A stretch of 64,000 bases of DNA from Malacoraja senta. Lineage: Eukaryota. Each line of letters starts with the position of its first letter. The stretch's first letter is position 1. Under the pieces are notes generated by a model that was given only the letters and a program-made list of their open reading frames with translations, did no database searches and was not told the origin of the DNA. Both the position numbers and the translations under genes were made by a program. The DNA lies in assembly GCA_038087875.1 (NCBI GenBank), contig CM075989.1, positions 372,001-436,000 of the forward strand, written 5' to 3'. Below are positions 16,840 to 48,619 of the stretch, piece after piece.

Positions 16840-16944
16840 TTATACATTTGCATATATGGAATCTTCCACCAGGCAGTTTGCATAAATATCTTCATGACGT
16901 TGATTCATGTTCAGCGTGGTTTTGGGGTCTTTCAGACCTTAGTC
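16840..16944 (-). CDS. Terminal cytoplasmic exon of Siglec-like locus: D*GLKDPKTTLNMNQRHEDIYANCLVEDSIYANV*
   Basis: Acceptor tttccattcctgtcacag (AG at 16945-16946). SIYANV fits the ITIM consensus S/I/V/LxYxxI/V/L. In-frame TAA at 16939-16941. Confidence 0.72.
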
Positions 16945-17033
16945 CTGTGACAGGAATGGAAATAGACAGAGTGACAAATGGCAGCACTGGCAATTGCTAT
17001 GTACGGGTCTGGAGAATACTCCACCCACAATAG

Positions 17034-17340
17034 GCGGCACCGTGGCGCAGCGGTAGAGTTGCTGCTTTACAACGCTAGAGTCCCAGGTTCAATCCTGAGT
17101 GTGCATGTTGTCTACGGAGTTTGTGCATTCTCCCCGTGACCTTTGTGGGTTTTCTCCAAGTGCTCATGTTTCCTCCCACGCTCCAATGTCGTACAGGTTT
17201 GCAGGTTAAATGGCTTCTATAAATTGTCCCTAGTGCGCAGGACAGTGCTAGTATATGGGTAATCGCTGGTAGGCACAGACTCGGTGGGCCAAAGGGTCTG
17301 TTTCTGCGCTGTATCTCTAAACTAAATTAAACTAAACTAA
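17034..17340 (+). mobile_element. tRNA-derived SINE (HE1/V-SINE-like)
   Basis: A box TGGCGCAGCGG 17043-17053, B box GGTTCAATCC 17086-17095, central GGAGTTTGTGCATTCTCCCCGTGAC domain, and (CTAAA)n-type tail. Confidence 0.85.
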
Positions 17341-17601
17341 ATAAATGCCGATAATCATTGATCAATAGTGGGTTTGATTTTATGATTTCAGTCTCAGGGT
17401 GACAGGTGGGATCACAGGGGAGTACACTCCCACCTCTCCGAGAGGTGGTTCTGGGTTGAAGACCCTCCAGCTGTGTCTTTAACACAGAAACCAAGGCAGA
17501 CACTCGCAGGCAGTACTGAGAGACCGGCTGTGTAGTGGGGCATTGCTGAGGGAATGTCACACGGCTGGAGGTGCTGCAGATTCCAAGCTGTGTTTGGAAA
17601 T

Positions 17602-17740
17602 CGAAGATCTCGGAGAAAACCCACATAGTCACGGGGAGAACATACAAACTCCACACAGACAGCAACCGTAGTCAGGATCGAACCCGGGTCTTTGGTGCTG
17701 CAAGCGCTGTAAGGCAGCAACTGCTGCGCCCCCGTGGCCA
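17602..17740 (-). mobile_element. Partial tRNA-derived SINE (same type, opposite strand)
   Basis: Minus strand GGTTCGATCC B box and GGAGTTTGTATGTTCTCCCCGTGAC. Confidence 0.75.
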
Positions 17741-17840
17741 CTGGAGTTGTGTCTGGAAAAGTGGAGCGGTGTTATACCAGTGTCCACCTTGCTTTAATCT
17801 CAGTGACCTGTGTTTGTCCAGTGAGAAAGGAATACAGTAA

Positions 17841-18405
17841 AGGGCCTGTCCCACTTACATGTCCTTTGCATGCAAATTACACGACCTCATGGTCTCGTTG
17901 ATGCGCAGGGGCATCGTATGAACGCGCGGGGCCAGTGCAACTGAGAAGTGCGGAAGGGTATGTAGTTGTGCACGACATCGCGTGGGGCTCCGAAATTTTT
18001 GTAGCAAACAAAATCTTCGCGCGCCAACGGCCTTTCGCGGAACATCGCCAAACTCGGCCTGGGGCTCACGGCTCCGCCCCCACTTCTACTCCCAGAGCGG
18101 GGCCAAGAAAATTGAAGATAGGCACAAAATACTGGAGTAACTCAGCGGGACCGGCAGCATCTCTGGAGAGAAGCAATGTGTGATGTTTCGGGTCAAGACC
18201 TTTCTTTCAGACTGAAGAACGGTCTCAACATGAAACATCATCCATTCCTTCTCTCGAGAGATGCTGCCAGTCCCGCTGAGTTATTCCAGCATTTTGCGTC
18301 CATCTTCAAATGATGTCACACGCTCCAGACATCTGTGCGGTTGAATGAAGTCGCGACCACGAGGTATGTAATTAGCGTGCCAAGGACACGTAAGTGACAG
18401 GCCCT
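17841..18405. mobile_element. Non-autonomous PIF/Harbinger-like DNA transposon with a nested ~200-bp palindromic element (~18112-18308)
   Basis: TIRs AGGGCCTGTC(CC)ACTTAC / GTAAGTGACAGGCCCT, flanked by TAA at 17838-17840 and 18406-18408. Confidence 0.75.
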
Positions 18406-18440
18406 TAACTGTGACAGGCATCACTCAGGATGGTTATTAC

Positions 18441-18485
18441 CTGGGCTGTTTCAGACCGTGTGTGGTGCATTTTATAACGTTCCTC
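18441..18485 (-). CDS. 3' half of split cytoplasmic exon (EERYKMHHTRSETAQ)
   Basis: Ends CAG|GTAATA donor (GT at 18439-18440), phase 0; directly abuts the CR1 5' end. Confidence 0.55.
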
Positions 18486-19341
18486 CTGAGTGGACAAATG
18501 CATGGCAGATGCAGTATAATGTGGATAAATGTGAGGTTATCCACTTTGGTGGCAAAAACAGGAAAGTAGACTATTATCTGAATGGTGGCCGATTAGGAAA
18601 AGGGGAGATGCTTTCGAGACCTGGGTGTCATGGTACACCAGTCATTGAAAGTAGGCATGCAGGTGCAGCGGGCAGTGAAGAAAGCGAATGGTATGTTAGC
18701 ATTCATAGCAAAAGGATTTGAGTAATCGAGCAGGGAGGTTCTACTGCAGTTTTACAGGGTCTTGGTGAGACCACACCTGGAGTATTGCGTACAGTTTTGG
18801 ACTCCTAATCTGAGGAAAGACATTCTTGCCATAGAGGGAGTACAGAGAAGGTTCACCAGACTGATTCCTGGGATGTCAGGACTTTCATATGAAGAAAGAC
18901 TGGATACACTTGGCTTGTACTCGCTAGAATTTAGAAGATTGAGGGGAGATCTTATAGAAACTTACAAAATTCTTAAGGGGTTGGACAGGCTAGATGCAGG
19001 AAGATTGTTCCCGATGTTGAGGAAGTCCAAACAAGGGGTCACAGTTTAAGGATAAGGGGGAAATCTTTTAGGACCGAGATGAGAAAAACATTTTTCACAC
19101 AGAGAGTGGTGAGTCTGTGGAATTCTCTGCCACAGAAGGTGGTTGAGGCCAGTTCATTGGCTATATTTAAGAGGGAATTAGATGTGGCCCTTGTGGCTAA
19201 AGGTATCAGGGGGTATGGAGAGAAGGCAGGTACAGGATACTGAGTTGGATGATCAGCCATGATCATATTGAATGGCGGTGCAGGCTCGAAGGGCCGAATG
19301 GCCTAATCCTGCACCTATTTTCTATGTTTCTATGTTTCTAT
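18486..19341 (+). mobile_element. CR1 3' fragment with (TTTCTATG)n tail, inserted in a putative exon
   Basis: [38 protein letters not shown]; tail at ~19318-19341. Confidence 0.92.
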
Positions 19342-19411
19342 CTGTCTTTCTCTCATCTGCACGGTTCCAGATTCCTCCCTTGTCACTGTTCTCGATGCAT
19401 CCACTGGAGGT
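19342..19411 (-). CDS. 5' half of split cytoplasmic exon
   Basis: Acceptor ttaattctgctcttag (AG at 19412-19413); open reading frame up to the CR1 tail. Confidence 0.5.
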
Positions 19412-19965: not shown

Positions 19966-20063
19966 CTGTCTGTTCTTCATGTAGCGAATCACAGCAAATG
20001 GGATGATCAGGAACACAACCCCTGCTGCAGCAGCCAATGGGATGTATGGTAACCTCTGCCCAT
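19966..20063 (-). CDS. Transmembrane exon: (Y)GQRLPYIPLAAAAGVVFLIIPFAVIRYMKNRQ
   Basis: Acceptor ttcctgcaacag, donor CAG|GTGGGT. Hydrophobic stretch followed by basic residues; phase-1 start matches the preceding C2 exon. Confidence 0.75.
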
Positions 20064-20499
20064 CTGTTGCAGGAACTGAGGCCAAAGAGATGGTTATTAG
20101 TGACGGTGTTCACAGTTTCATTAACTTGCTTTCACAAAGACCCACCTCTCGTCCACAGTAGCCTTCAGCAACCCACTGTGTTTAAATGTACACAGGTGCA
20201 GCAGTTGTTGAAAAGAGAAAAATAACCAATTTCAGAATATAGTGTTTCAGTTAAAGCATTAAAGTTCTAGAGAAAACATTGTTGGCCAGTGTGGGCAAGT
20301 TGGGCCGAAGGGCCTGTTTCCACACTGTATCACCCTATGACTGACTCTAAGCAATGTCTGTAATCATTCTCACCTAGCACACAGCTAACAATGGCCTGTT
20401 TTCTTTATTATCGTTACTTTTTTGTATATCTTTCATTAATTTGTTCTGTGCATTCTATAACCACTGCTATCAGTGGCAGCAATGAAACATAGAGCCACA

Positions 20500-26324: not shown

Positions 26325-26606
26325 ATTCTATGGCGAGGGTCACGGTCTTTTCCGCTGTCCCATGCTTATTCTCTGCCACACACTGATAGACCCCAGTGAG
26401 GCTTGGTGTCACCTGAGGGAACTTCAACCACAGCTCGTTGTTGGAACTTGTTCTGTTCAGTGTGACACCGAGATGTCTCCATGTCAGGTTGGATGCTGGG
26501 AAACTCTGGACAGAGCAGAGGATCGCTGCAGAGTTCCCTTCCTTTATACTGACCCAGGAATTGTTCACCTTGTCGGAAGAATTGATTGATAGATTCTGTG
26601 GGGAAT
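26325..26606 (-). CDS. Ig C2-type domain exon 2 of Siglec-like locus
   Basis: SPQNLSI...EGNSAAILCSVQSFPASNLTW...GVYQCVAENKHG; acceptor ttgcttttag, donor T|GTGGGT; 282 nt, phase 1-1. Confidence 0.88.
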
Positions 26607-27180: not shown

Positions 27181-27478
27181 AATAAATAATCAGTCAGTGT
27201 GAGGGTCTGCTCCGATGAAACAGTTAGGTATCTGAATCTGCAGGTGAGGTTTTGCCCGTGATGTTGGAGCGCTGGGGTCAGGGACACAACATAAGTATAT
27301 GTCAGACTGTCACCCCACTGAGTTACACTGTGTGAGACTGACAGTGGTTCATCAGTGGGGGTGACCCAGGTTAAGTTGGGAGCCGTTCCATCACATGTGG
27401 TGTTGAAGGTGCAGGTTACGTTCACAGTCTTTCCTTCCACCGTTTCAACAGGGAATATTGAGGGTTTATCTGTGAAAT
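27181..27478 (-). CDS. Ig C2-type domain exon 1 of Siglec-like locus (donor out of phase; read-through stop at 27177-27179)
   Basis: (D)FTDKPSIFP...EGKTVNVTCTFNTTCDGTAPNLTW...LTPALQHHGQNLTCRF matches the Siglec domain-2 pattern; acceptor ctctgtttattag. Confidence 0.85.
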
Positions 27479-27581
27479 CTAATAAACAGAGAAACTTTCA
27501 GTTAAATGTCACCAGACGTTGCCCTGTGAGGGAACAGCACAGCTGGCAGTTTAGATGTTGTTAACTTGCCCTTGCACTGGG

Positions 27582-27720
27582 TGGAAGATTGCAACCTTCA
27601 CAATTGCAACCGCCCTGTTTCGATGAATGCAATCAACCCGGCATGCACAATCAAATAAGATCAAATAGAACAAGTTGTCCTGCAACTTTAGGCTGTGCAC
27701 GCCATATGCAAGAAGAAGAA
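27582..27720 (+). mobile_element. Short 5'-truncated non-LTR insertion with (GAA)n tail (RTE-like)
   Basis: 8-bp TSD GCACTGGG at 27574-27581 and 27721-27728; ends CAAGAAGAAGAA. Confidence 0.65.
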
Positions 27721-28585
27721 GCACTGGGCCTCTCAGCTTGAGGGAGCACTGCAATGGTGGAGTGGTCTCTGGTTCTCCAGTTGTGACAGACCTGATAAAT
27801 CCAGTAGGGAATTCATGAGAAATTCCTCTATCCAGTCGAGGAAACGGCAACTCATTCCCATTAGAAGGGTTTGTGGTGAATAACAGAGATGGATTTGTGA
27901 GGAACCAGATAAACACTGAGGAGAGAGGGGCATCTGAAGTGGTGATGAGGGACATGGGAAGAGGTGGAAGGAGTTCAAGTCTATTGTCATATGCACACGT
28001 AAGGTGAGGGATAGGAGTAGTGAAAATCAGCAGGATCACAGGCACATGGATAAACACACAAAAAACACCATTTGCATAAATTACACAAAAGATTATAAAA
28101 GAAAGACTGCAATAAAAACAAACAATTTGTGCAAAAACATAATTAGAATAGAAGAAACCAAGTCCGCGCCAGTACAAGGTGGTCTGTAGTGTTCCACTGC
28201 TGAATTAGTATTAGAGTTGTGTAGGTCGGTTCAAGAATGTGTCCATAGTAGTAACATGGCTGTTGCTGACCTGTGGTGTGGGACTACAGGATTCTGTAGC
28301 TCCAACCTGTCGGTAGCAGTGAGAAGAGAGCATGGCCCACATGATGGGGATCCTTGATGATAGATGCTGCCATCTGGAGGCAGGACATTGTAGTTGCCAC
28401 ACTCCATGATGCCATGATGCAACCAAGCAGGATACTTTCTTCAGTGCCTCTGTGGAAGTTTGTTGGAGTATTTGGAGACGTAGTGTACCAACTCTCCCTA
28501 AACTCAGGAAGTAGAGGTACTGGTTTACCTTCTTCACAATTGCATCAATGTGCTGCACACCCACGACATGTCATCCAGGAATTTA

Positions 28586-31500
28586 ACCATATAACCATAT
28601 AACCATAACAGCACGGAAACAGGGCATCTCGGCCCTTCAAGTCCGTGCCGAACATTATTATTATTATTATTTTTGTTTTAAATTCCCCCTAGTCCCATCT
28701 ACCTGCACTCAGACCATAACCCTCCATTCCTTTCCCGTCCATATACCCATCCAATCTATTTTTAAAGGATAACATCGAACCTGCCTCCACCACTTCCACT
28801 GGAAGCTCATTCCACACAGCTACCACTCTCTGAGTAAAGAAGTTCCCCCTAATGTTCCCCCTAAACTTCTGTCCCTTAATTCTCAAGTCATGTCCCCTTG
28901 TTTGAATCTTCCCTACTCTCAATGGGAAAAGCTTATCCACGTCCACTCTGTCTAACCCGCTCATAATTTTAAAGACCTCTATCAAGTCCCCTCTTAACCT
29001 TCTGCGCTCCAAAGAATAAAGACCTAACTTGTTCAACCTTTCTCTGTAACTTAGTTGCTGAAACCCAGGCAACATTCTAGTAAATCTCCTCTGTGCTCTC
29101 TCTATTTTGTTGACATCCTTCCTATAATTAGGCGACCAAAATTGTACTCCATACTCCAGAATTGGCCTCACCAATGCCTTGTATAATTTTAACATTACAT
29201 CCCAACTTCTATATTCAATGCTCTGATTTATAAAGGCCAGCACACCAAAAGCTTTCTTTACCACCCTATCTACATGAGATTCCACCTTCAGGGAACTATG
29301 CACAGTTATTCCTAGATCCCTCTGTTCAACTGCATTCCTCAATTCGCTACCATTTACCGTGTACGTCCTATTTTCATTTGTCCTGCCGAGATGTAGCACC
29401 TCACATTTGTCAGCATTAATCTCCACCTGCCATCTTTCAGCCCACTCTTCCAAATGGCCTAAATGTCTCTGTAGACTTTGAAAATCTACTTCATTATCCA
29501 CAACACCACCTATCTTAGTATCATCTGCATACTTACTAATCCAATTTTCCACACCATCATCCAGATCATTGATGTACATGACAAACAACAGTGGACCCAA
29601 CACAGACCCCTGAGGCACCCCACTGGTCACCGGCCTCCAACCTGACAAACAGCCATCCACCATTACTCTCTGGCATCTCCCATTCAGCCACTGTTGAATC
29701 CATCTTGCTACTCCACCATTAATACCCAACAATTGAATCTTCTTAACCAACCTTCCATGAGGAACCTTGTCAAAGGCCTTACTGAAGTCCATATAGACAA
29801 CATCCACTGCTTTACCCTCATCAATTTCCCTAGTAACCTCTTCGAAAAATTCAAGAAGATTAGTCAAGCATGACCTTCCAGGCACAAATCCATGTTGACT
29901 GTTCCTAATCAGACCCTGCTTATTCAGATGCTTATATATATTATCGTTAAGTGTCCTTTCCATTAATTTGCCCACCACTGACATCAAACTAACAGGTCTA
30001 TAATTGCTAGGTTTACTCTTAGAACCCTTTTTAAACAACGGAACAACATGCGCAGTACGCCAATCCTCCAGCACTATTCCCGTTTCTAATAACATTTGAA
30101 ATATTTCTGTCATAGCCCCTGCGATTTCTACACTAACTTCCCTCAATGTCCTAGGGAATATCCTGTCAGGACCTGGAGACTTATCCGTTTTCATATTTTT
30201 CAAAAGTGTCCGCACCTCCTCTTCTTTGAATCTCACGGTTTCCATTGCTACTCTGCTTGTTTCCCTTACCTCACATAATTCCATATCCTTCTCCTTGGTG
30301 AATACCGAAGAAAAGAAATTGTTCAATATCTTCCCCATCTCTTTTGGCTCTGCAGATAGCTGTCCACTCTGACTCTCTAATGGACCAATTTTATTCCTTG
30401 TTATCCTTTTGCTATTAATATAGCTGTAGAAACCCTTTGGATTTACTTTCACCTTACTTGCCAAAGCAACCTCATATCTTCTTTTAGCGTTTCTAATTTC
30501 TTTCTTAATATTCTTTTTACATTCTTGATACTCCTCAAGCACCTGATTTACTCCATGCTGCCTATAATTATTGTAGATCTCTCTCTTTTTCCAAACCGTG
30601 TCCAATTCCCCTTGAAAACCATGGCTCTTTCCAATTTTTACTATTTCCTTTCAACCGAACAGTGACATAAAGGTTCTGTACTCTTAAAATTTCACACTTA
30701 AATGTCCTCCACTTTTCTTCTACATCCTTCCCATAAAACAACATGTCCCAATTCACTCCTTTTAAATCCTTTCGCATCTCCTCAAAGTTAGCCTTTCTCC
30801 AATCAAAAATCTCAATCCTAGGTCCAGTTCTGACCCTCTCCATAATTATATTGAAACTAATGGTATTGTCATCACTGGACCCGAAGTGCTCCCCGACGCA
30901 TACCTCCGCCACCTGCCCTGTCTCTTTTCCTAACAGGAGGTCCAGCACCGGCCCTTCTCTAGTAGGTACCTCTATGCAATGCTGCAAAAAACCGATCCTG
31001 CACACATTTTACAAACTCCAAACCATCCAGCCCTTTTACAGAATGTGTTTCCCAGTCTATGTGTGGAAAATTGAAATCTCCCACAATCACTACCTTGTGC
31101 TTACTACTAATATCTGCTATCTCCTTACATATTTGCTCTTCCAATTCTCACTCCCCGTTTGGCGGTCTATAATACACCCCTATAAGTGTTGCTACACCTT
31201 TCCCATTTCTCAGTTCCACCCAAATAGCCTCCCTAGACGAGCCCTCTCATCTATCCTGCCAAAGCACTGCTGTAATATCTTCCTTGACAAGCAATGCAAC
31301 ACCCCCATCTCTTGCCCCTCCAATTCTATCACCCCTGAAGCAACGAAATCCTGGAATATTTAGTTTCCAATCACAGCCCTCCTGCAACCATGTTTCACTG
31401 ATCGCCACAACATCATACTTCCAGGTGTCAATCCAGACTCTAAGCTCATCCACCTTTCTTACAATGCTCCTAGCATTAAAATATACACATTTAAGAAACC

Positions 31501-32851: not shown

Positions 32852-32955
32852 TTATTATTAAATTAGTATTAATTATTAATTATTTATTAAGATTATTATA
32901 ATTATAATTATATAATTATATAATTATAATTATAATTAATTATTAATTAATCAAT
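32852..32955. repeat. AT-only low-complexity tract at a CR1 5' junction
   Basis: (ATT/AAT/TTA) runs visible directly. Confidence 0.9.
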
Positions 32956-34242: not shown

Positions 34243-37200
34243 AATAGTAAGATTAACCGAGAACTTACCAGTTTGAAGTTTGATCTTTATTTTATGTGGA
34301 GTTACATTTGTGATTACGTGAAGAAGACCCGTCAGGGCGCATGCGCGTCAATCTTCAAAGCAGCGGTATGAAATCACAGACAACACCATAATTGAAGTAA
34401 CATATTAAGATGATCAACATGAGAACTGCCATTATGACCTTTTTTCTATGAGAGAGGGTTGGGCGTGGCGAGCACGTAATCACCAATGTAACTCCTCATA
34501 AAATAAAGATCAAACTTCAAACTGGTAAGTTCTCGTTTAATCTTACTATTTTACTTCGGAGTCACGTGAGTGACTACGTGAAGATTTTAAAGCTCTGTGA
34601 TTTTTATGCCGCAGATCAAAATCCCGGCTTCTCACTGCATCGATTGACTGAGTATCATCAATAATGCTGTAAACATGACATTGCCTATCATGCAAAAACA
34701 AAACAGTTTTATTTTTGGTCATAAAACAACCAATAAACCCTCTTAATGTAGGGGCAACAAACGAAACAGAATTAAACAGTATTGAAAACAGACTTTAAAC
34801 AATAGCAACAGCACTCAATATTGAGTGGGCAAACAGCCCTCCATCAGCAATCGGCCGATGGTAGTATTGCTGAAACACAAGTTCATTTTTCCAACCTGCG
34901 GCTTTTAATATATGGTCGATGGGAACGTCCATCGCCCTGGCCGCGGATGTTGCTACTGCGCTAGTGGAATGAGATGTAAACACATAAATGTTCATTCCTG
35001 CCTGAACCAACTCTTGCTTTAACCACCTTGAGATAGTCTGAACTGCCACTCTTTTATGTTGGCTTCTTGTAACTGACAAATAATCCTGTTTCTTCTTGTC
35101 TTAAAGCCCTTGTGGCTTCAATGTAATGTAAGAAATGTGTCCTTACACATAAACATGGATCTGTAGGATATGCTGAGAACACAATCTTAAATCCTGTCAC
35201 ACCTGGCCTGCTTTGTTTGAGCAGGTCAATAATATAAAACAGAAGATTCTCTGTATTCACTTCCATTTTTGCAAAGTCTGCACTCTCGGTACTGACACCA
35301 ATGCCATTAGCATAGCCAATTTCATGGTTAATTTTAACAAAGTTATAGACGTGACAGGGACCCAATGACGAAGCATGTTAAGAATAACGCTTACATCGCA
35401 GATTACCATATACCTAGGCTTAGGCGGTTTGGAACTAAAGATTCCTTTCATCAACCTAGATATGAGAGGGTGAGAACCTATACTTTGTGTCCGTGTACCT
35501 ATTACAAGATATGCCGACAAAGCACTTCTAGCTGTATTGATAGCAGTATAGCTAAGACCCTCATGATAATAAAGTGTAGATAAAACTCTAACACATTTTC
35601 AATAACTACAGTATCATATTGAATATTCTTTTGAACACCATATTGTTCCCATTTTTTTACGTCATATACTGCTTTTGAGTACTCTTTCTCCAGGCTGCAG
35701 TGAGTATATCCACCGTTGGCCTAGAAAGTCCTCGACCAATGTAAGGCATTCTTAAAAACCTGCAAATTAACAGATCAATACAATCACATAACAGATGAAC
35801 TTAACGCGTTACTGGATGCTCCAGCAAGTTCCTACTGTTTGGAATCCGCAAAAGGAGGTTGGATCGCTATCTGTAACATGAAAGGGAACCAAGGTTGAAT
35901 CGGGCAATTTGGTATCACCAAAACCCCTGAATCGGCATCCTGCTTGATTTTCTCAAACACCGACCTATGAGGCAGAATGGTGGGAAAATGTACACAAACA
36001 TATCATCCCAATTTAGTGAAAAAGCATCAATTGCCACTGCCCCTGGATCTGGTGCCCATGAAACATATTTTGGCCTTCCATATAGAAGTACTCTCTTCTT
36101 GAACACATCCTGGTTCAACATCCACTCTGTATTATCACAGAATTTTCGTGACCTGCCGTCTGGTACTACGTTAAGTTTCCCTGGCAGATAGATAGCTCCA
36201 ATCCAAATATCCATACTCCAGGTCCAATTTTATTTGCCAACCTGTCACATGATAACGATTTGATTCCACCCATGTGATTCATATAAGCAACTGCTGCAGT
36301 GTTGTTTATTTGGCACTGCACATGCAAACTAGTTTAGTTAGTGCCATAAGCCTTGAGTCCATAAAATACTCCTGGTTAATTACCCATGTTTGCAGAAGCA
36401 ATGTCCATCTGTCTCCACAGCTGGATCTTGTATCAGTAGCACCCTACCCAAGTGCTCTGACATCTGTCTGCAAAATCATGGAAGCTTGGTCCAATAACAC
36501 TTTTGAACTACTAGTGGACACATGCTGAATCCACCATTGTACATCAGCAACAGCCTCTGTTGATAGAAGCATAGGGCTATTATAATGACCCCAATGTATC
36601 CTCAGTGCTTGTTCCTTTGACCTTTGTAATTGTAGATAATAAAGTGGCCACTATTGAACTGCTGTCAGCAATTTCACCAGCAGACTTGTCACCTGGCTAA
36701 TTGAAGGCTGTGTGTCAGCAATTAACTTGATACAGCTCTTAATTAGCGCTACACTTTTTTGCCTGGGCAAGGACACAATCATGTTGATTAAGTCTATTGT
36801 GAACCCAACTAGTCAATTTGTGTCACAGGTATTAATTTAGATTTCTCTGGATAGCTTATGAAGCCCAATTTAAAAAAAAGTGTTTTTACCAACAAAGCTG
36901 TTTCCTTTGATTGTCCTACAATCAAGATATTATCTCGATAAGCCATGAGCACATGCCCTTGACTTCTCATCATGCCTAGAATAGGTTTTAACAACTTTGT
37001 AATCTCTCTAGGAGCTGAAGACAAACGATTAGGCAGTGCATTGTATTGCCATAATTGCCCCATCCAGCTGAATTTTAAATCTTCTATCCTGCAAATGAAC
37101 AGACACAGAATCCGGATCTTTAAAATCTCCTCAAACGTTTCCATCTTAAATTGTCTATACCGTACAAAAAGGTTTAAGACTATTCAGGTCCAGTATAATT

Positions 37201-38935
37201 CTGCATCCCCCATCCTTTTTTGGTCTGGGAAAGATATTGGACACAAACTGATGGCTTTGGTAAACTGCCTGAGCAATTACACCTTTATTACATAAGCTTG
37301 CAAGTTGCACCTGAACTTCCAATTGTTCAGTGATACTGGTCAAACTCCGTTTTTTAAAAGTTTTTTTTTAACATGTTTGCATGGGTAAATCAGAATTTGC
37401 ATTAAGCTTTATTACAAACCCTTCAATAACCTTCAGTATAAACATATCTGAGGTATCACATTAGATGTGTCTACATGAGAACCAGACCCACTTACCTCCT
37501 TACCACCTGGCATTCTTCCCCGGCCCCGAGCTGGATATCTCACCTTCCCTGGCGCTGCTACAGCCGAATGCCAACTGCGCTGCATCGTAGCTTGGACTCA
37601 TCCGTTGCCCGGACCAGTCTCCTCGCTTATAGGGATACTCTCCTCCAGCTCCTTCACCTGCTTTGCGAAATCCTCGGCAAACAGATTTGCCGGTTGCCCT
37701 GTGGCAGGCTGGCAGAGTGAAGCATATTTAGGATTGATGGTTGGTCTAAACGCAGTCTTGCGGAGGCAGTTGATATTAAAGTGGGTACTCCACAATAGCA
37801 CCACACCTTTTGTTGTAATTTCATCATGTCCTCTCCATCCACCATCCTGGCAAAGCTCGATATGCCAGATGTCAGCAACTTTAAAATATACTGGAGCTTC
37901 ACCTACTCCTGGGCTCTCATTTGTATGCCCATCTTGCTTCCTTACTGTCTCATCCATTGTTAGCTCCTGTAGCTGATGTGAGACTTGGTTATTTATGCTG
38001 GTGGCAAGTTACTCACCCAGAGGCTCACCAGCGTCCGACGACATGGCAAACCGTGCTGCACAAGGTGTCAGCTCTGGCCGCTGCATGCCCTCCTTTTGGA
38101 ATTCGTCGTCAGACTCAGGGTCAGAGCGTATCTGCCCTTCTGCACTCACCTCTTGCAAAGAGGGTGCTTTCAAGCAGGCCTCTGCCAGGCACTGCCGGTG
38201 GAGCCTTCCCGACGGCCTCCCGCCCTCACAACTCCTCCTGGAGTGTGGCTTTGTGAAGCAGGCCTCTCCTAGACACTGCCAGCGGAGCTGTCCCCACGGC
38301 CTCCCGCCTGCACAACTCCTCCTGGAGTGTGGCTTTGTGAAGCAGAACCTCTCCTAGGCACTGCCAGCGGAGCCTTACCTATGGCTTCCCGCCTGCACTC
38401 CTCCTCCTGGAGCGTCTCTGTGGAGCAACCCCTGTATGAGCTGCTCCTTTTGGATAACTGCTGGGGCACGGTATCCTGTCCCCGACGGGACTCTCGTGGC
38501 CCGACTCTGCGGAGTCTATGGCCCTGACAGACTTGGGTTATGCCTACCGCCCGACTGGCGTTGGCTGTGTACCCAGCTGGGCACTTTCCGAAGTCAGTCG
38601 CCGGACCGCTACCGGCTTGCGACTCCCCCGAGGTGACAGGCTGCCTTTCAGAGACTGCGCTCCCGCAGCTCTCTCTCTCCTTGTCGGTAGCAGACCTGCA
38701 CCTTGATAATTTTTTACTTGTTCCTGTAATGTGTGGGGAAAACATACAGCAACAATTTCTACTTTTTTCTAACTCCTCCAAAGTCTCCCGGACTTTGGTG
38801 GAGCTGTAACTACTCACCTGCAGGAGGAGCTCCGTCCTCCTGCTGCCGTTCGCGCCAATACGTCAGACATAATGACGCGCATGCGCCCTGACGGGTCTTC
38901 TTCACGTAGTCACTCACGTGACTCCGAAGTAAAAT
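34243..38935 (-). mobile_element. DIRS1-like tyrosine-recombinase retrotransposon A (full-length, degenerate)
   Basis: ITRs (TACGTGAAGAAGACCCGTCAGGGCGCATGCGCGTCA and its complement at ~38873-38908), ICR ~34475-34583, RT (PKKDGGCRIILDL, WQYNALP), RNase H/MTase (YIFPPF), YR (SHST..ATS...GW...FQQYY). Confidence 0.93.
38180..38412. repeat. ~83-bp tandem repeat, about 3 copies, in the gag region of DIRS-A
   Basis: Repeated CACTGCCAGCGGAGC...CTCCTCCTGGAGTGTGGCTTTGTGAAGCAG. Confidence 0.85.
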
Positions 38936-39439
38936 GTCTGTGCTGGCTCAAAGGGCCGAATGGCCTCCTCCTGCACCTATTTTCTATGTTACTATGTTTC
39001 TACCTCACGATCCCAAAAATCGCCTCATCTGAAAATTTGATTCATTAATTCTTGAGTTATTTATTTAAATTGTTCACAAAAATGAAATCATTTTTAAAGC
39101 TAACAAGCTGATGACGTCACAATGGCTATGCTCCTCGCTGCCCGCTGCGCATTGTTTTCAACACGCAGCCTGCTGGCCATTTTTTCCACGCGCTGCGAGT
39201 TACGTCCCCACCCCCCCGACTCACAGTCATTTGTTCACCGCCCGCTCGCAGTCAACGCTCACTCGGCCGGCTGCCCCGCCAGCAGCTCAGCCTCTCTCCC
39301 CCCCACAGGGCGCTGGATTGAAGCTGCTGTACACACAGTAATTTAGTTGGGTTTCCGAGGGATTCAGAAGTCCCACGAGGTCTCGCGAGGTCCCGAGTGC
39401 TACCGAGGCCCACCACCCGCGCGCGCGAGTTCAAGTACG

Positions 39440-39645
39440 CCCTCTCGCTCTCTCTCCCCCCTTCCGCTCTACTCTCCCCCACCCCCCTCCTCTCCATCCT
39501 CCCCCTCCACTACACTCCCCCCTCTCCCCCCTCCCCCCCCCACCTCTCCCACTCCTCTCCCCCCTCTCCCCCTCCCCACTCCTTCCCCCCTCCCCCCTCT
39601 CCCCCCTCCCTCCCTTCTCCCCTCCCTCCCCCCTCCTCCATCCCA
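39440..39645 (+). repeat. C-rich polypyrimidine tract (G-rich on minus strand)
   Basis: Directly visible. Confidence 0.9.
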
Positions 39646-40187
39646 CCTTATGCTACCCCTCTTACCTTAAAACTATGCCCTCTAGTATTTGATATTTCCT
39701 TCCTAGCAAAAATATTCTAATTGGCTATCCTATCTATGTCTATTATAATTTCATATACTTCTATCAGGTATCCTCTCAATGTCCAATGTACCAGAGAAAA
39801 CAATTCAAATCTGTCCAACCTGACTTTGTGGTTATTTCCTCCTGATGCAAGTATCGTACTGATAAACCTCTGCAGCTTTTCCAAAGCTTCCTTCTTTGGG
39901 GCGACAAGAACTGCACACAATACTCCAAATACTCCCCCCAAAAGTTTCATCATGTCTTCATGACTCTTATACTCAATGCTCCTACGAATTAAGGCAAGCG
40001 TACCAAAAGCCTTCTTTACCACACTATCTACTTGTGTTGCCACCTTCAGAGTTATGGGCTTGGACTCCAAGATCCCTTTGCATTTGCAATGCTGTTATGG
40101 ATCTTGCCATTAAATTCCTCTTGCATTCGACTTTGCAAAGCTCAATATCTCACACTTGCTGATGAAAATTCCAACATCATAGCCTGA

Positions 40188-41752
40188 AACCATATAACCA
40201 TATAACCATATAACAATTACAGCACAGAAACAGGCCATCTCGGCCCTTCTAGTCCGTGCCGAACACTGATTCTCCCCTAGTCCCATCTACCTGCACTCAG
40301 ACCATAACCCTCCATTCCTTTCCCATCCATAAACCTATCCAATTTATATTTAAATGATAAAATCGAACCTGCCTCCACCACATCCACTGGAAGCTCATTC
40401 CACACAGCTACCACTCTCTGAGTAAAGTTCCCCCTCATTTTACCCCTAAACTTCTGTCCCTTAATTCTCAAATCATGTCCTCTTGTTTGAATCTTCCCTA
40501 CTCTAAATGGAAAAAGCATATCTACGTCAACTCTGTCTATCCCTCTCATCATTTAAAAGACTACTATCAAATCCCCCCTTAACCTTCTGTGCTCCAAAGA
40601 ATAAAGACCTAACTTGTTCAACCTTTCTCAGTAACTTAGTTGCTGAAACCCAGGCAACATTCTAGTAAATCTCCTCTGTATTCTCTCTATTTTGTTGACA
40701 TCTTTCCTATAATTTGGCGACCAAAATTGTACACCATACTCCAGAATTGGCCTCACCAATGCCTTGTACAATTTTAACATTACATCCCAACTTCTATACT
40801 CAATGATCTGATTTATAGAGGCCAGCACACCAAAAGCTATCTTTACCACCCTATCTACATGAGATTCCACCTTCAGGGAACTATGCACAGTTATTCCTAG
40901 ATCTCTCTGTTCAACTGCATTCCTCAATTCCTATGTACGTCCTATGTACGTCCTGTTTTGATTTGTCCTGCCAAGATGTAGCACCTCACACTTATAAGCA
41001 TTAATCTCCTTCTGCCATCTTTCAGCCCACTCTTCCAAATGGCCTAAATCTCTCCGTAGACTTTGAAAATCTATTTCATTATCCACAACACCACCTTAGT
41101 ATCATCTGCACACTTATTACTCAAATTTACCACCCCATCATCCAGATCATTGATGTATATGACAAACAACAGTGGACCCAACACAGATCCCTGAGGCACA
41201 CCACTAGTCACCGGCCTTCAACCTGACAAACAGCCATCCACCATTACTCTCTGGCATTTCCCATTCAGCCACTGTTGAATCCATCTTGCTACTCCACCAT
41301 TAATACCCAACAATTGAATCGTCTTAACCAACCTTCCATGTGGAACCTTGTCAAAGACCTTACTGAAGTCCATATAGACAACATCCACCACTCTACCCTA
41401 ATCAATTTCCCTAGAAATCTATTCAAAAAATTCAAGAAGATTAGTCAAACATGACCTTCCAGGCACAAATCCATGTTGACTGTTCCTAATCAGACCCTGT
41501 TTAACCAGATGCTTATATATATATCATCTCTAAGCATCCTTTCCATTAATTTGCCCACCACTCGTCAAACTAACAGGTCTAAAATTGTTAGGTTTACTCT
41601 TAGTACCCTTTTTAAACAACGGAACAACATGCGCAGTACGCCAATCCTCTGGCACCATTCCCGTTTCCAATGACATTTGAAATATTTCTGTCATAGCCCC
41701 TACTATTACTGCACTAACTTCCCTCAATGTCCTAGGGAACATCCTGTCAGGA
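40188..41752 (-). mobile_element. CR1 family A 3' fragment
   Basis: (AACCATAT)n tail; RT fragments 40277-41742. Confidence 0.92.
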
Positions 41753-41831
41753 TTAAATTTCCTCTTTCACCAGAGATGACTCTTGATTGTTTATAAAGTA
41801 TATTGTAACATCCTGAGCTATTGCAAAGTAC

Positions 41832-44800
41832 ATTAGTAAGATTAAGCGAGAACTTACCAGTTTGAAGTTTGATCTTTATTTTATGAGGAGTTACGTTGGT
41901 GATTACGTGAAGAAGCCCCGTCAGTTCGCATGCGCGTCAATCTTCAAAGCAGCAGTATTAAATCACAGGTAACAGTAATTGAAGTAACATAGTAAGATCA
42001 GAAACTTGAAAACTACCAGATGACCTTTGTGAGAGAGGGTTGGGAGTGGAGGGCACGTAATCACCAACTTAACTCCTCATAAAATAAAGATCAAACTTCA
42101 AACTGGTAAGTTCTTGTTTAATCTTACTATTTTACTTCGGAGTCACGTGAGTAATTCCATGAAGAGTTCAAAGCTCTGTGATTTCATGCCGTAGATTCAA
42201 ATCCTGGCGTCTCACTGCATCGATTGTCTCAGGATGAGTGAATAATCAACAATGCATTATACCTGACATTGATTTAAACGTATTAATGGTTTACGTTAAT
42301 AAAGAAAATCAATAGCAACCCTTATATCTCAGGGGAGGCTAAAGTGGACGCTAAACAGAATGGCCAAATAGCCCCGGGTCGGCAATCGGCCTATGTAAAA
42401 AAAAAATTGAAAATCAATTCACTTGACCATCCTGTCGCCGCGAGGATATGGTTGATGGGAATGTCCATTGCACTGGCCGCTGACGTTGATGCCACCCTGG
42501 TGGAATGAGATGTAAAATTATCAATGTTAATACATGCATAAACCAGAACCTGCATCAGCCACCTTGAAATAGTCTGAACCGACTTTTTCTTGTGTGGTTG
42601 TTTGTGGCTAATAAACAATGCTGATTCCACACCTCTTAGGGTTCTGGTGGCCTTGATATAATATAGCAAGCCTGCCCTCACACATAGACGTGAGTCCGTG
42701 GGGTATGCCGAAATATGATCTTAAACCCTGTCACCCCTGGTCTGCTTTGCTTGTGTAGACCAGAAATGTAAAACGTAATGGCATCTGCAACCTCTCCCAT
42801 CCTATCTGGCCACAGCTTTTGCAATGTCTGCACTCATTGTGCTGATACTAGTGTCATGACTAAGGAAGTAGCTGGCCCCTGGTGAAGTATTGTTAACACA
42901 ATGTCAATATCCCATACTGCCTCTACTTGTACTGGGAGAACTTGTGTTAAAGATATTGTTTACAAACTCGATATCCAGGGTTGAAACCCAACAGAGTGGG
43001 TCCTGTGTGTTGCAGCTAATATGATGGGAAGGCACATTTGGCACAGTTAATGGCCCTAAACTCAATTATTGTCAGAAGACCATTTAAGAATGAACTGGAA
43101 GATGTCAGTAATCTGTACCGTATTAAATGTAACATTAACATTAAACAAAACCGCTTCCCACCTGAATAGGGAATGTACTCTTTTTTGGTGCTATCGCTGC
43201 ACCCTGCAGTGAACACATACATGGATTGATGTGACAACCTGAGCTGTAGGGCAGTCTATTCAGAATCTGCAAGTCAATAAATTGATTTTATCATGCAGAG
43301 GCTGGTTTCCTGAACCACAGTTTGCACCAGCAAAGTTTTCGTTGTTTAGAATAACCGTATATGTTTGTATTATTATGCCTGACAGAAGTAGGAATCATGG
43401 CTGCATAGCCAGTCAGACAGTACGAAAACTAAAGTGAGATCTTGCTAGCTTTATTTCAAGACCCGACTGATGAGGCAAAATGGAATAAGACATAAAAGAA
43501 CATTCCTCCTTCCTGTAGCGAGAATGTATCTCTCAACACTGTTATGCCACATATTTTTGCAATCAGTGAATAAGCATGAAACCAACATGTCGATATTCGG
43601 TGTTTCATTGAACCATACTTTCATAAATACTTTGTGATCCAACACCTATTCTGTGTTGTCATTGATCTGAACTTGATGATCCACCAGTGGCAAAGGAGAT
43701 TAGGTAAATTATTACAGGATAATTTTACTTGATTGCCATGTGACTAACATATGCCACCACCGTCGTGTATCAACGAAGTTGAGCATGTAGATGATGTATA
43801 TTCGCTCAATAGCCCTTTACCCATGGGATGCATCTAGTGTCTATAGCTAGTTAATACCAATAACTGAAGAATTGGCAACTCATGCAAATCTCCTCCTCCT
43901 CCAAACTGGAGATAACATTTGCAATTTTCCACCTTAGAGCCCTTAGCATTAGTTTGTAAAATTACTGAAATTCGACTCACCAAACCACTGGAGCAATGCT
44001 GAATACAGTTTGTTCATCATTGTGACTTAGGTAGCTTCAGCTGGTCATAGCATAAGCCTGTTAACAATGACCTACATGTCATATGAGAGGTTGCTACTCT
44101 GCAAGATGTCAGTTCCCGACTTGCACAGCTGAATCACAGCTACTATATTGCCAATTACACTTGATGAATAGAATTCAGCTTAATAACAGGTTTCTATTAA
44201 TTCCAATCTCATGCCACAAGGCGGAGTCATAGGCTAATTATTAGTTAAAGGTAAATCCCAATGACCAACAAGTCTATTTGGTAACAACTTAAAGTTAACT
44301 GGATGGATGAGCCCAATTTCTCAAATATAGTTTGAGGCTGAAACAGGTGATTTTAACAAATTACAGCGTTAGAATATCATCCATTCAAGACATAACAAGT
44401 GTTTTCGAACTGTCCAAACACCGATTTACTAATTAGTTAAATAACCTGGGGAAATAGTTTATCCCATTTTGCAATGTTTTACTGTTATTAGTACAGTAAT
44501 CATTGCCTTTTGATAATTTCCAATGTCTCTTATGATGCCTATAATGGGAACTGCAGAGAATGGATCTTTGAGACCCTTATGAATCCGTTGTTAGTCAGTA
44601 AATAAGTTTCCTATTTGGAAAGTTCATATGCGAGTTAAACGGCATTCTCCATTTTTCATAATGAACAGGCCACTCCTGCCATCATTCCATGGGTGCTTTG
44701 CACCATAACTCTGGCCTGATTTCCGAGCCTGTCTTGAAACCGACAATTCTGGCCCTAATTCCAAACTTGCTTGGAATGCTAGTATTGTGTAGTTTTACAT

Positions 44801-46326
44801 GGTTAGATGCCTCTAAGCAGATGACAATGCCTTTATCCTTTGTGTGCTGTACAAACAAGTGTAAAAATTAACAACTTGTGAGTGGCCCATTTACCCTTGT
44901 TTCGGAAGTGCCAGACCCACCTTGTTGAGTAGGACTGGTAGGGTGCGTGGAACCTCTGCCCAGCTGTCATGTTGCCACCAGCTTCAGTGAACCTCTTACT
45001 GCCGATGAAGGCATGGGGTGCGTTCTGAAACGATGAACCTTTGCCCTTTGTTCTTGATTGGTCCGACAGCTTTGTTTCGTCCTCCAGGTTTTTGCTGTTG
45101 AATAGAGCTTACCTGAATAGAAGGTTCGGCGGCTGGCTCTCATATCCCCCTGATAGCGCTGTTCACTGCTGGCACACATGTGTTCCAGTACGTTCCACGG
45201 ACATCTTTAGAATCTGAAGTCAGTTACATCTGACCTTTCGCACTCACCTCCTTAGAGAGGGCGATTCGTAGGCAGCCCTAAACAGGTGCTGCCGCAGGCC
45301 CCTGGGGATACCTGCGCGGATACGGCCCCCAATGGACCTATACCAGGATGGAACATTCTGTTGGGATGGCAAACTTTGTTGTCAGGAAATGATACCTCTG
45401 ACACGTGCCCTTCATCCCTTGAGGTATGCTCCACCGCTATACCTTCAGACTCGGCATCAGAATTACACTGACCCGGCATGCTCTCTTCAAAAAGGGAGAC
45501 ATTAAGTAGCCCTGTCCCAGGCGCTGCTGGCATGACCTCTCCTACAGGCCGGCGCTGTCACACATTAAGTAGCCCTGTCCTAGGCACTGCTGGCGCGGGC
45601 TCTCCCGTAGGCCGGCGCTGTGACAGATTCGGTGATGGTCTCCCCCTCCAACAGGGAGACATTAAGCAGCCCTGTCCCAGGCGCTGCTGCCGTGGCCTGT
45701 CCCATAGGCCCGCGCTTCCAAATTCAATTTTAGAGTGTGGAGCTTCACCTGTAAAGGGTTAAAATGACAACAGAATCCTCCAAATACATACATATTTCCG
45801 GAAGGGAATCCTTGCAGCCCGACTCGTCAGAATTCAATAGGGCTGATCGATGTATCGGTGATTTCACCCCATGCCTGGGGACCACCGAACGATGATATGT
45901 TTGTGAGCCACTGACCGCACTGTCAGCGACTCTGGAGGTGATACCGCCTTCCTGCTTGACTTTCCCTCCCCGGGAACCACAGCAGGCTGGAAACCACTGA
46001 CCGCCTTGTCAGTGACTCGGATCACGAACCCGACATCTGCCTACTATCCGCTTTCGCGGTCGGAACCGGGGTCTCCCCACAGCCCATAGCCAGTTCACTC
46101 GCCGGAATTCACCAATATCTACCAGGATATCTCTGTGAAAAGAGGTTCCTGCAAGAAACTCAAAAAACCTGGAAAGTAATACAAACTTACTTGAAGTTTT
46201 AAACTTACCGCCGGCAGGAGCAATGCCCTGCCAGTCTGGTGCTTCGCAATGCGAACGACGATATGATGCGCATGCGAACTGGCGGGGCTTCTTCACGGAA
46301 TCACTCACGTGACTTTGAAGTAAAAT
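41832..46326 (-). mobile_element. DIRS1-like retrotransposon B (heavily decayed interior)
   Basis: Same termini as DIRS-A (AGTAAGATTAA.CGAGAACTTACCAG... / ...CACTCACGTGACTTTGAAGTAAAAT), ICR ~42054-42163, YR fragment SHSTRVASTS...GWS. ~65-bp internal repeats at 45497-45715. Confidence 0.9.
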
Positions 46327-46610
46327 ACAAACTTGAGTCCCACTTTGCTGTGTACATTACTGGAGCAATGTGTGATTAGCAACATGTATCACAGCTGGTA
46401 ACATAGCTGCATATAGTGCTCTTGTTTTACTGATGATCATGGAAGAAGTATCAGCATTGTGGTGAGATTGGACTGGAGGGCAATGCCAGGGTTTAACCAT
46501 CAAACACTGTGATACTGAGCTATGGTTTGTGTTCATTGGGCAGAAGCGCAGTTTGTGTTACTTCCCACTGCCTGAATATCAGTTGTTGACTGATTATACA
46601 GAACACTTAC

Positions 46611-46976
46611 CAGAAACGTGGAGCCGTGTTACAGGGAAGAAGCTGATACGATCGTTGTTGTTGAATTCAATTCTGAAATGATAAGGACCTTCATCTTCCT
46701 GTGTCATGTTGTCTATAACCAGGGAACAGTTGCCATCTCTCAGGACTCCAGACAGCCGGGTCCGATGGTGAAACCTTAGTGATTCTCTACTGCGATTCCC
46801 GGAGTGGAAAGCGATAGACTGAGAGTTCCAGTCCTCATCATTAATCCAGATTCCAACCGGTGTTATTTTGTTCAGACGCGACGGGTAACTGTAGTGGCAC
46901 GGAATCCGGGCACACAGACCCCTCTGTGCTGTCACCTCTAATGGAGTGTTGATTGTCCACTCCATTGACACTGCAG
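46611..46976 (-). CDS. Siglec-type V-set Ig domain exon
   Basis: GLCARIPCHYSYP, GIW, RTRLSG..DGNCSLVID, DEGPYHFRIE; acceptor ccttctctcctcag, donor G|GTAAGT; 366 nt, phase 1-1, no stops. Confidence 0.92.
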
Positions 46977-47622
46977 CTGAGGAGAGAAGGAACAACATTA
47001 GGCACTGGAGGGCTTGTGGATCATCCAGACTCCATTGTGTAGGAATCACATCCTGGGCATTGTGGGATGACAAAGTGTGTGAATACCTTCTCGTGCTTTT
47101 CTGCCTCTGAAAATGTGAACTGCACGTGAACTGACTCTCTTACTGAGGGTCAGCTGCTGCAACTCACATGCACTGACCCAGGGGAAGACCTCAAGGTCTC
47201 TCTGGCAGCCTGTGAGAACAGTGGTGGGTGGAGTGCAGTGACAGACACAGCAAGCACCAGGTGAAAGAAGGTTGTTCATACCAGAGACAGGTTTTAGATC
47301 CCCCTCCCGTTGTAGGGAGTCTCAAACTAAAGGCCACAGGTTTAAGGTGAGATGGGAAAGATTTAAAGGGGACCCGAGGGACAGATTTTTCACACAAAGG
47401 TGGAGGGTATATATGACGAGCTGTGAGAGGAAGTGGTTGAGGCCTGTACAATAACAACATTTAAAAGACATTTGGACAGGCACGTGGGTGGGAAGGGAGC
47501 AAATGGGCAAAGCTCAGGGGTACAGAGAGAGTGAGGGTTGCAGCAGTGATGGAGGTTATTCCCCATCATGAGAATGTACAGACAGTCGGCCATAAACACA
47601 CACAAGCTGTTGCTGACGGTAC

Positions 47623-47662
47623 CTTGGAGAAGTGACAGGAAAAAGTTCGATTTCACCATCAT
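47623..47662 (-). CDS. Signal-peptide exon MMVKSNFFLSLLQ(A)
   Basis: Donor AAG|GTACCG, phase 1, joins in frame to AVSMEW. Acceptor ttctctcttccag at 47703-47704 implies an upstream non-coding exon. Confidence 0.72.
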
Positions 47663-48619
47663 TGTCCGATCCCACATATCCCGTCAGTTTCCCACTCCAG
47701 GTCTGGAAGAGAGAATAGTTAATGATATCTCTCCACCTGCCCGGCAGCTCTCGAGAGATTCCAACTGCTGCTGGACAGTGGGGCTGAACTTCCCCTGATC
47801 CAAAACTGCTGCTGTCTGCGCTTGGACCCCACTGTCCCTCCAGAGCTGTCCCAGGTACAGTCTCCCTCTGGAAGCCGACTCCCAGCGCAGTGTCCTGGGC
47901 CAGGCCAGGGCCTCTCCTAGTCTTCTGTACATTCTATCCTGGAGATTGACAGATTCTTGATAGGTACGGGTGTCTGAGGTTATGGGGAGAAGGCAGGAGA
48001 ATGGAGTTGAAAGGGAAAGATAGATCAGCTATGATTGAATGTTGGAGTAGGATCGATGGGCCGAATGGCCCATTTGCTCCTGTGACATGAGCTTATGTTC
48101 AGTGTCCGCTGGACTTACAGAATGACTTTGACAGCTGTCCCCAGACCCACCCATTGACGGAGTTGTCCCCCACTGCTCAGACCCTGGAAACCAGGCATGA
48201 ATAACGAGTTTAGAAATTATCACAGAGATACAGGACACAGCACGAGCTGGAATCTTGGGTTAAAACAACAAAGTGCTGGAAGAACTCAGTGGGTCAGGCA
48301 GCATTTGTGGAGGGAGTAGAAAGATGACGGTTCTTGTCGGGTCCCGGCAAGGATATCCGGCTCACCACCACGACATTGGAGGAGACGCCCACCGTGGACT
48401 GAGCTCCTACTCACCGCAGTCAGAGGACCGAGAAACACCCACGGCAGACCAAGAATGGAGGACCCACCGGTAGACCTGGCTCTCCACCGAACTTGGTCCT
48501 GAGCCACCTGTGTCGATGGAACCCGCGTCACCAAGAGTGAGGAGGGAACTTAGAGCGAGGTGGACCGTCGAGAACAAAGGGGGGACCCAGCGGAGGGGCT
48601 ACAATAATCAATGGGTTCT

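Follow-up and report, generated by a model that had tools for sequence, protein, structure and literature searches.

The closest described systems are the vertebrate Siglecs. The CD33-related Siglecs (CD33, Siglec-5/7/8/9/10) have a short V-C2(-C2) ectodomain with a conserved arginine and a tail with tyrosine motifs, and their genes are clustered together with pseudogenes. MAG (Siglec-4) is a single-copy, strongly conserved receptor with five Ig domains, and Siglec-1 (sialoadhesin) has a long multi-Ig stalk. One source gives the ITIM consensus as [I/V/L/S]xYxx[L/V], reports that fish MAG has an ITIM, and describes Siglec-1, which has no ITIM, as having 'no regulatory domains'; writing about teleosts, it also states that inhibitory CD33-related Siglecs are missing from fish genomes (PMC7226832). 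Broken copies in a fast-evolving Siglec cluster are described for human in another source (SIGLEC12P, 14 null, 16P and 17P; PMC7379906).

Here, we analysed a 64,000-nt stretch of the Malacoraja senta genome (the window; GCA_038087875.1, CM075989.1, positions 372,001-436,000), in which the exons of a Siglec-type receptor lie on the minus strand at 16840..47677. Judged from sequence comparison, this locus is most probably a pseudogene of recent origin, a copy of a Siglec-type receptor gene of elasmobranchs that is broken by four lesions. It resembles the human SIGLEC pseudogenes in this respect but belongs to another lineage, and polymorphism is documented for the human genes.

A Siglec-type family in sharks and rays

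The three Ig exons of the window gave Pfam matches to V-set (E 1e-11), C2-set_2 (3e-7) and Ig_3/I-set (3e-11), and a tblastn search of the window with 140 family proteins revealed no Ig exon beyond these. The V exon aligns with the F-strand arginine of sialoadhesin and Siglec-5, a pattern matched by 116 of 127 V domains of the family. The Siglec cysteine pattern, taken as a B-E intra-sheet pair plus an extra cysteine to domain 2 with no F-strand cysteine, was also found: CxxIPC and an E-strand cysteine in the V domain and an extra cysteine in the first C2 domain align with those of Siglec-5, CD33 and MAG, the bonds themselves being putative. A Foldseek search using an AlphaFold model of the V domain (pLDDT 76.6) returned sialoadhesin as the top four matches (TM 0.67-0.71), with other V-set folds scoring just slightly below. 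Sialoadhesin is the best match of the V domain in both sequence and fold, including the A-strand Trp and the F-strand Arg, and the V exon scores 53.6 bits to Siglec-1 and 41.9 bits to MAG. No single Siglec is the best structural relative throughout: the V domain matches Siglec-1 best, the first C2 domain CD33, and the second C2 domain MAG, which also gives the best PDB match when the ectodomain is compared as a whole. Sialic acid-dependent glycan binding by members of the family is predicted from these features. The Siglec-type architecture and the cartilaginous-fish host given in the preliminary description both hold.

Members of the family are already present in the automated NCBI annotation of 21 sharks and rays, one being a 448-aa protein of the little skate, Leucoraja erinacea, with the same layout. 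These relatives, whose names are automated labels, form one clade and share with the window copy the signal-V-C2-C2-TM-tail layout, the tail motifs and the V exon (77% identical), whereas the window copy carries four disruptions. The family had been described as one of three-Ig receptors. The local cluster indeed has three Ig exons, but the named relatives range from about 250 to more than 1,000 aa, and some have an additional membrane-proximal domain ahead of the TM segment.

The family falls outside the tetrapod CD33-related clade in a careful tree of 32 of the 62 rows of a quick tree, the two clades being separate with 100/100 support each, and also in the quick tree. As to the suggested tie to CD33-related Siglecs, a sister relationship was not rejected: the constraint costs 4.5 lnL (p-AU 0.30) in a tree without named MAG, CD22 and Siglec-15 orthologues. 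The family further differs from CD33-related Siglecs in its proximal tyrosine motif, which is YxNC and not a canonical ITIM. Named sialoadhesins also lie outside the elasmobranch clade. With three Ig exons in the local cluster, multiple copies, fast turnover and no more than distant similarity, the family is distinct from MAG. Neither protein searches nor searches of the same genome with PF24518, the second C2 exon and P0053 gave a true MAG orthologue; they returned Siglec-like families only. Because no MAG orthologue was found for the tree, the placement relative to MAG, CD22 and Siglec-15 was taken from PDB scores only.

Exon map and lesions of the window copy

The exons occur in the order previously proposed, namely signal, V-set, C2, C2, TM and two tail exons, all on the minus strand (Table 1). 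The reported TE-filled intron of about 19 kb was confirmed, with 85.5% of it matching repeats elsewhere in the 524 kb examined; the equivalent intron measures 8.2 and 7.5 kb in two open paralogs.

Table 1. Features of the Siglec-type locus, in window coordinates.
Feature	Position	Strand	Remarks
Signal-peptide exon, coding part	47623..47677	-	55 nt; intact, with a phase 1 donor; also present in 4 paralogous copies
V-set exon (Siglec ligand-binding)	46611..46976	-	366 nt, intact
F-strand Arg codon of V exon	46674-46672	-	from alignment to Siglecs
Cys codons of V exon (starts)	46914, 46899, 46728	-	
V-C2 intron	27479..46610	-	19,132 nt, at least 85% repeat-derived
First C2 exon	27192..27478	-	18-nt deletion at 27192/27191; read-through stop 27179-27177
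Second C2 (I-set-like) exon	26325..26606	-	282 nt, open, AG/GT
Transmembrane exon	19966..20075	-	110 nt vs 124 in paralogs; hydrophobic
First cytoplasmic exon, 5' half	19341..19411	-	donor gone
Retroposon insert	18490..19340	+	851 nt, 5'-truncated, antisense within first cytoplasmic exon
First cytoplasmic exon, 3' half	18441..18489	-	original donor kept; possible cryptic acceptor giving a 45-nt exon from 18485
Last exon	16840..16944	-	105 nt; premature TAA 16941-16939; ends SIYANV-stop at 16840
Remnant tyrosine motifs DIYANC, SIYANV	last exon (SIYANV 16860-16843)	-	behind premature TAA

The locus, however, is not complete as had been claimed, and its exons do not form an unbroken GT-AG series. 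Alignment with three or four paralogs for each lesion, on the same contig, revealed four disruptions. First, the deletion at the end of the first C2 exon removes its final 7 nt together with the GT donor. Second, a 14-nt frameshifting deletion near 19978 shortens the TM exon, which retains its full length in four of four paralogs; seven substitutions are also clustered at 19977-20000, and the exon ends in phase 0 instead of phase 2 as in the paralogs. Third, the retroposon splits the first cytoplasmic exon, which is unbroken (117-130 nt) in all four paralogs. Fourth, codon 2 of the last exon is TAA, the paralogs having AAA (three) or GAA (one). The best other copy of the retroposon nearby is 96% identical; we take the element to be LINE/CR1-type, and its 107-aa frame has no Pfam match. 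By exon phase logic, the retroposon by itself abolishes the normal tail, even were the small lesions errors. The 14-nt deletion could be 'compensatory', restoring the frame after the retroposon insertion, for which chance alone gives 1 in 3. A hidden extra exon mending the phases was ruled out, as the paralogs splice without one and tblastn of the window found none.

Because the four lesions separate the coding frame from the ITIM-like motif, the window copy is not a complete inhibitory receptor. The exons cannot all be joined in frame via AG/GT sites and no cytoplasmic ITIM is translated, the DNA of the claimed C-terminal motif sitting behind a stop. SIYANV fits the ITIM consensus; DIYANC (YxNC) is non-canonical. 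All lesions lie at or 3' of the first C2 donor (3' clustering by chance, P about 0.10), and no stop or frameshift was found in the signal, V and first C2 exons. The private changes of the window copy number 8 nonsynonymous to 6 synonymous (neutrality, P about 0.09), resembling the 9:8 of the intact copy C. Therefore, either the copy began to decay only recently or its 5' part remains under constraint.

Predicted transcripts and alternative readings

We enumerated 16,000 splice paths, of which 192 lead to SIYANV, none of these through the genuine last-exon acceptor. The nearest GT past the first C2 exon leads to a frameshift and then a stop within the second C2 exon, and no GT donor that would leave the first C2 exon intact links it in frame with the genuine second-C2 acceptor. 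The stretch from the read-through stop to the second C2 donor contains no AATAAA or ATTAAA; such a hexamer first occurs at 24750. A transcript of the window copy would likely end in or shortly past the first C2 domain and undergo nonsense-mediated decay. No spliced joint appears among the listed public-contig rows over 19290-20150, and no listed public record bridges the retroposon junction; cover gaps (e.g., X3 19957-19985) carry no weight.

A truncated product might still be made, either a 240-aa secreted V-C2 protein (reading through to the 27177 stop) or, if the first C2 exon is skipped, a two-Ig membrane protein of 272-287 aa that lacks tyrosine motifs, serving as a decoy for sialylated ligands. 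We regard this as unlikely. The 3' position of the lesions and the clean 5' exons with their retained Arg and Cys would suit such a product, but the chance probability of this clustering given above speaks against it. Skipping of the first C2 exon preserves the frame; however, the Siglec V domain pairs an inter-domain cysteine with the first C2 domain, and this cysteine would be left unpaired. The 14-nt deletion brings the TM exon into frame with the remaining tail exons, but this is expected once in three cases anyway, and with no poly(A) hexamer nearby the read-through message is a target of nonsense-mediated decay.

It is a little less probable still that the lesions are partly allelic or due to assembly error and that a less damaged or intact allele segregates, as in the polymorphic pseudogenes SIGLEC12/14/16, for which such pseudogenisation is documented in human (PMC7379906). 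A public contig (run X2, record 16) has a 124-nt TM exon with the 14 nt present and window-type letters on both flanks, and an allele without the TM deletion may exist. Seven substitutions within 24 nt beside a deletion are also unusual. However, the TM end of record 16 matches paralog B letter for letter, and a de Bruijn chimera is possible because paralog-shared stretches of 44 and 67 nt (>31 nt) flank it. Furthermore, the 851-nt insertion cannot be a base-calling error, and four lesions on a single haplotype take time. Record 16 is the one public contig spanning the TM exon; the lesions other than that in the TM exon were compared in the assembly only.

It is very improbable that the locus encodes the receptor of the earlier model, complete with three Ig domains, inhibitory and with an ITIM at its C terminus: every exon remnant is in order with recognisable domains, but several cryptic sites would be required together (weak splice sites, both donor and acceptor, near the first C2 exon; a cryptic donor within or past either the TM exon or the first tail exon; and an acceptor beyond the premature stop), and the paralog alignments contradict it.

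Neighbouring copies and meaning for the family

The window copy likely originated in a duplication, tandem or inverted, and decayed afterwards. Neighbouring copies with the same exon order, which the preliminary description had suggested looking for, were found. Two of them are open (contig C13, 608-631 kb and 699-717 kb), each with seven exons that splice in frame. In these paralogs, C and E, each of the six introns keeps its AG/GT sites. The spliced products, 451 and 448 aa long, are 87-88% identical over the full length to annotated relatives (396/451 and 389/448 identical residues with the Leucoraja erinacea protein). The tail of C carries an ITIM; E ends in SIYANE and has none. The window copy, C and E form one group in the quick tree (97), and two Leucoraja genes are its sister (99).

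In the local cluster, four of six copies or fragments are broken or partial and two are open, which is consistent with birth-and-death; across the family, 21 of 29 V loci are complete in one frame. Recent lineage-specific duplicates and pseudogenes thus occur together within a separate elasmobranch clade, in agreement with the proposed lineage-specific family undergoing birth-and-death. Only retroelement or transposon families were found as flanking genes in the 98 of 452 non-repeat frames scanned over 524 kb.

The intact copies would encode type I membrane proteins with a V-C2-C2 ectodomain, which may bind sialylated glycans via the conserved F-strand arginine. SH2 proteins, SHP-1/2 among the candidates, would likely bind to their tail tyrosines and damp leukocyte activation, as with inhibitory Siglecs. 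The sequence predicts a sialic acid-binding, immune-damping role for the family.

Taken alone, the window locus is unremarkable: it is a duplicate that has decayed within an immune-receptor cluster, and its intact equivalents are already in the NCBI annotation. Greater weight lies with the family than with the locus, and the intact neighbours are the apt subjects for study. A literature search for an elasmobranch Siglec-type clade found no description of it. In contrast to the statement on teleosts cited above, short Siglec-type receptors that have tyrosine motifs form a large clade in elasmobranchs. Tentatively, sharks and rays may have built a large paired Siglec system independent of the tetrapod CD33-related Siglecs, with ITIM/ITSM-tailed inhibitory members and short-tailed members coupling through a TM arginine to an activating adaptor, and with turnover so fast that loci like the window copy segregate as null or truncated alleles. 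If functional tests hold, the use of a fast-evolving Siglec cluster for inhibitory sensing of sialylated 'self' would either go back to early jawed vertebrates or have arisen twice.

Exon anatomy of the window copy and its lesions

A preliminary description had reported here a complete seven-exon, three-Ig Siglec-like gene with a C-terminal ITIM. We located its exons on the minus strand, and Pfam supports all three Ig domains of this copy (copy A). The V-C2 intron, described as about 19 kb and filled with transposons, measures 19,132 nt, of which 85.5% matches repeats elsewhere (524 kb examined); it is 8.2 and 7.5 kb in two open paralogs.

Features of copy A, its neighbours on contig C13 and the mobile elements (window positions unless marked C13)
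Feature	Position	Strand	Support or state
Signal exon, 55 nt	47677-47623	minus	reading of minus strand
V-set exon, 366 nt	46976-46611	minus	Pfam
181-aa open frame around V exon	46597-47139		in all four local copies
First C2 exon	starts 27478	minus	Pfam Ig domain
Second C2 exon, 282 nt	26606-26325	minus	Pfam Ig domain
TM exon	20075-19966	minus	reading of minus strand
First tail exon, two pieces	19411-19341 + 18489-18441	minus	
Last exon	16944-16840	minus	ends SIYANV-stop
Copy A	window copy	minus	
Copy B0		minus	two tail exons only
Copy B		plus	lacks both C2 exons; last exon with acceptor lost and 2-nt deletion
Copy C	C13, 608-631 kb	plus	open
Copy D		plus	lacks V; first C2 exon frameshifted; second C2 exon duplicated; TM acceptor lost
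Inverted 56-nt scrap of copy D V exon	G000:C13:668692-668747		
Copy E	C13, 699-717 kb	plus	open
LINE reverse-transcriptase frame, 936 aa	11860-14667		open; RVT_1, weak zf-RVT
Endonuclease-like frame	10941-11708		upstream of LINE frame
Retrovirus-like integrase core fragment	2390-2707		rve, E 3e-15
Retrovirus-like envelope fragment	58161-58697		TLV_coat, E 3e-13
RT fragment and recombinase-like frames	52231-53630, 34798-35598, 42394-42720		RVT_1 (RT fragment)

Four lesions private to copy A were defined by aligning its exons with those of close paralogs located on the same contig, found by searching the source genome. Between 27192 and 27191, 18 nt are deleted, and with them the last bases of the first C2 exon and its GT donor, which is kept in all four aligned paralogs. 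Without this donor the frame stays open until the stop codon at 27179-27177, which would yield 240 aa, and no poly(A) hexamer was found between that stop and the next donor. The TM exon has 110 nt rather than the 124 nt found in four of four paralogs, and therefore ends in phase 0, not phase 2. An 851-nt antisense retroposon, 96% identical to its closest neighbour copy, splits the first tail exon, which is continuous in all four paralogs. Finally, the second codon of the last exon reads TAA, where three paralogs have AAA and one has GAA.

Adjoining the 14-nt TM deletion are seven substitutions in 24 nt (19977-20000), all of which change TM-frame amino acids; the cluster may stem from error-prone repair, conversion or assembly error. 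The intron that follows the first tail exon carries, close to that exon, another insertion of about 560 nt (approximately 17839-18406) that the paralogs lack. An in-frame ATG stands just 5' of the V-exon acceptor, where the Leucoraja gene model P0011 starts. Among the mobile elements, the LINE frame looks young. The RT fragment and recombinase-like frames resemble DIRS-type elements; a Pfam search with the frame at 35260-35598 returned no match.

Splice paths were enumerated using every nearby GT and AG. Of the 16,000 paths, 192 reach SIYANV, none of them via the genuine last-exon acceptor, and a three-Ig product requires two cryptic sites at once, one donor and one acceptor. Of the preliminary description, the exon anatomy stands and the interpretation is supported in part; the gene is not complete. 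Private changes in copy A (8 nonsynonymous, 6 synonymous) occur in a ratio resembling that of copy C (9:8), suggesting that the decay is recent.

Three public contig sets were compared over 19290-20150. One contig across the TM exon (X2 record 16) contains the 14 nt and carries window-specific letters on either flank. The TM end of this contig is that of paralog B and is flanked by 44- and 67-nt stretches common to the copies, so it represents either an allele without the deletion or a graph chimera; it counts against fixation of the deletion. The retroposon insertion alone would abolish the normal tail, whatever the status of the deletion. Copy A is probably a pseudogene of a known kind of receptor, already annotated in databases, and likely yields no functional protein.

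Paralogs in the genome

A paralog search, proposed in the preliminary description, revealed close paralogous exons clustered on the same contig. The window covers C13:372001-436000, and mapping of all exons over C13:372-836 kb gave six copies or fragments (A, B0, B, C, D and E). In copies C and E all six introns are bounded by AG/GT sites, and the spliced products are 451 and 448 aa long, ending in SIYANV and SIYANE, respectively. Near B0 and D the assembly has two 200-N gaps (460.6 and 689.0 kb), so the parts absent from these two may be assembly gaps.

A V exon search of the whole genome gave 67 matches among 106 candidates. Of these matches, at least 29 belong to the family, and at least 21 of those 29 are complete in one frame; both counts are minimum values, and some of the small contigs may represent redundant haplotypes. 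The genome also has four or more other expanded families with Siglec-like V domains (C2317, C5841, C1, C4033 and others; loci L030, L098-L131). In one of them, with about 10 nearly identical copies that sit mostly on C5841, Tyr or Cys occupies the position of the essential Arg; another resembles Siglec-15, as we read its sequence.

Identity and phylogeny of the family

Copies A, C and E belong, with a 448-aa Leucoraja erinacea protein of V-C2-C2-TM-tail layout, to an elasmobranch family of Siglec-type receptors; copies C and E match that protein at 396/451 and 389/448 positions. Sequence alignment matches the V domain to sialoadhesin (E 2.5e-13), Siglec-5, Siglec-10 and MAG, with the A-strand Trp, CxxIPC, E-strand Cys and F-strand Arg all retained. 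For the AlphaFold model of the V domain (pLDDT 76.6), the top four Foldseek matches were all sialoadhesin. The first C2 exon is most like CD33; the second, like the whole ectodomain, is most like MAG. Among named proteins the nearest belong to the skates Leucoraja erinacea (77-79%) and Rhinoraja longicauda (75-76%), so the source of this DNA is probably a skate. With the Leucoraja protein as query, 148 of 7,997 scored candidates matched; 119 of the 120 matches listed are named as shark or ray proteins, drawn from 21 species, and their labels read Siglec-n-like, MAG-like or CD33-like.

A V+C2 tree was built from 32 rows, plus a quick tree of 62 rows, neither containing a bona fide MAG, CD22 or Siglec-15. 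All family members grouped in a single clade (100/100), distinct from that of tetrapod CD33-related Siglecs (100/99) and from Siglec-1, the reference labels coming from look-ups of 20 representatives and those of other tetrapod and teleost rows from sequence reading. A forced sister grouping with the CD33-related clade was not rejected (p-AU 0.30, 32 rows).

Tail motifs and possible function

Inhibitory Siglecs bind the sialic-acid carboxylate through an Arg, and their phosphorylated tyrosines then recruit SH2 phosphatases. By analogy, in intact copies the V-domain Arg would bind the carboxylate, and phosphorylated tail tyrosines may recruit SH2 phosphatases. Both tail tyrosine motifs are YxN, which we take to be a Grb2-type pattern. 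The distal motif of copy C fits the ITIM consensus given in PMC7226832, but the proximal DIYANC does not. A TM segment is predicted in 109 of 140 family proteins, and in 60 of these 109 it is followed by a consensus ITIM pattern. A basic TM residue occurs in six family proteins. Two look like faulty models; the other four (P0002, P0054, P0066 and P0093) are shark members with a TM arginine and tails of at most 17 aa, features that hint at candidate paired activating receptors. Short-tailed skate members lack a TM charge.

A literature search, with most subscription journals outside its reach, found no paper on elasmobranch Siglec expansions; reviews of Siglec evolution may cover them. In the published sources, fish are said to lack inhibitory CD33-related Siglecs while fish MAG has an ITIM (PMC7226832), the general Siglec layout and essential Arg are described (PMC6288428), polymorphic SIGLEC pseudogenes are described in humans (PMC7379906), and a single mention places the origin of Siglec families in jawed vertebrates (PMC8455134, whose supplementary file 9 may list them). 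The question at the level of the family is of moderate interest for comparative immunology.
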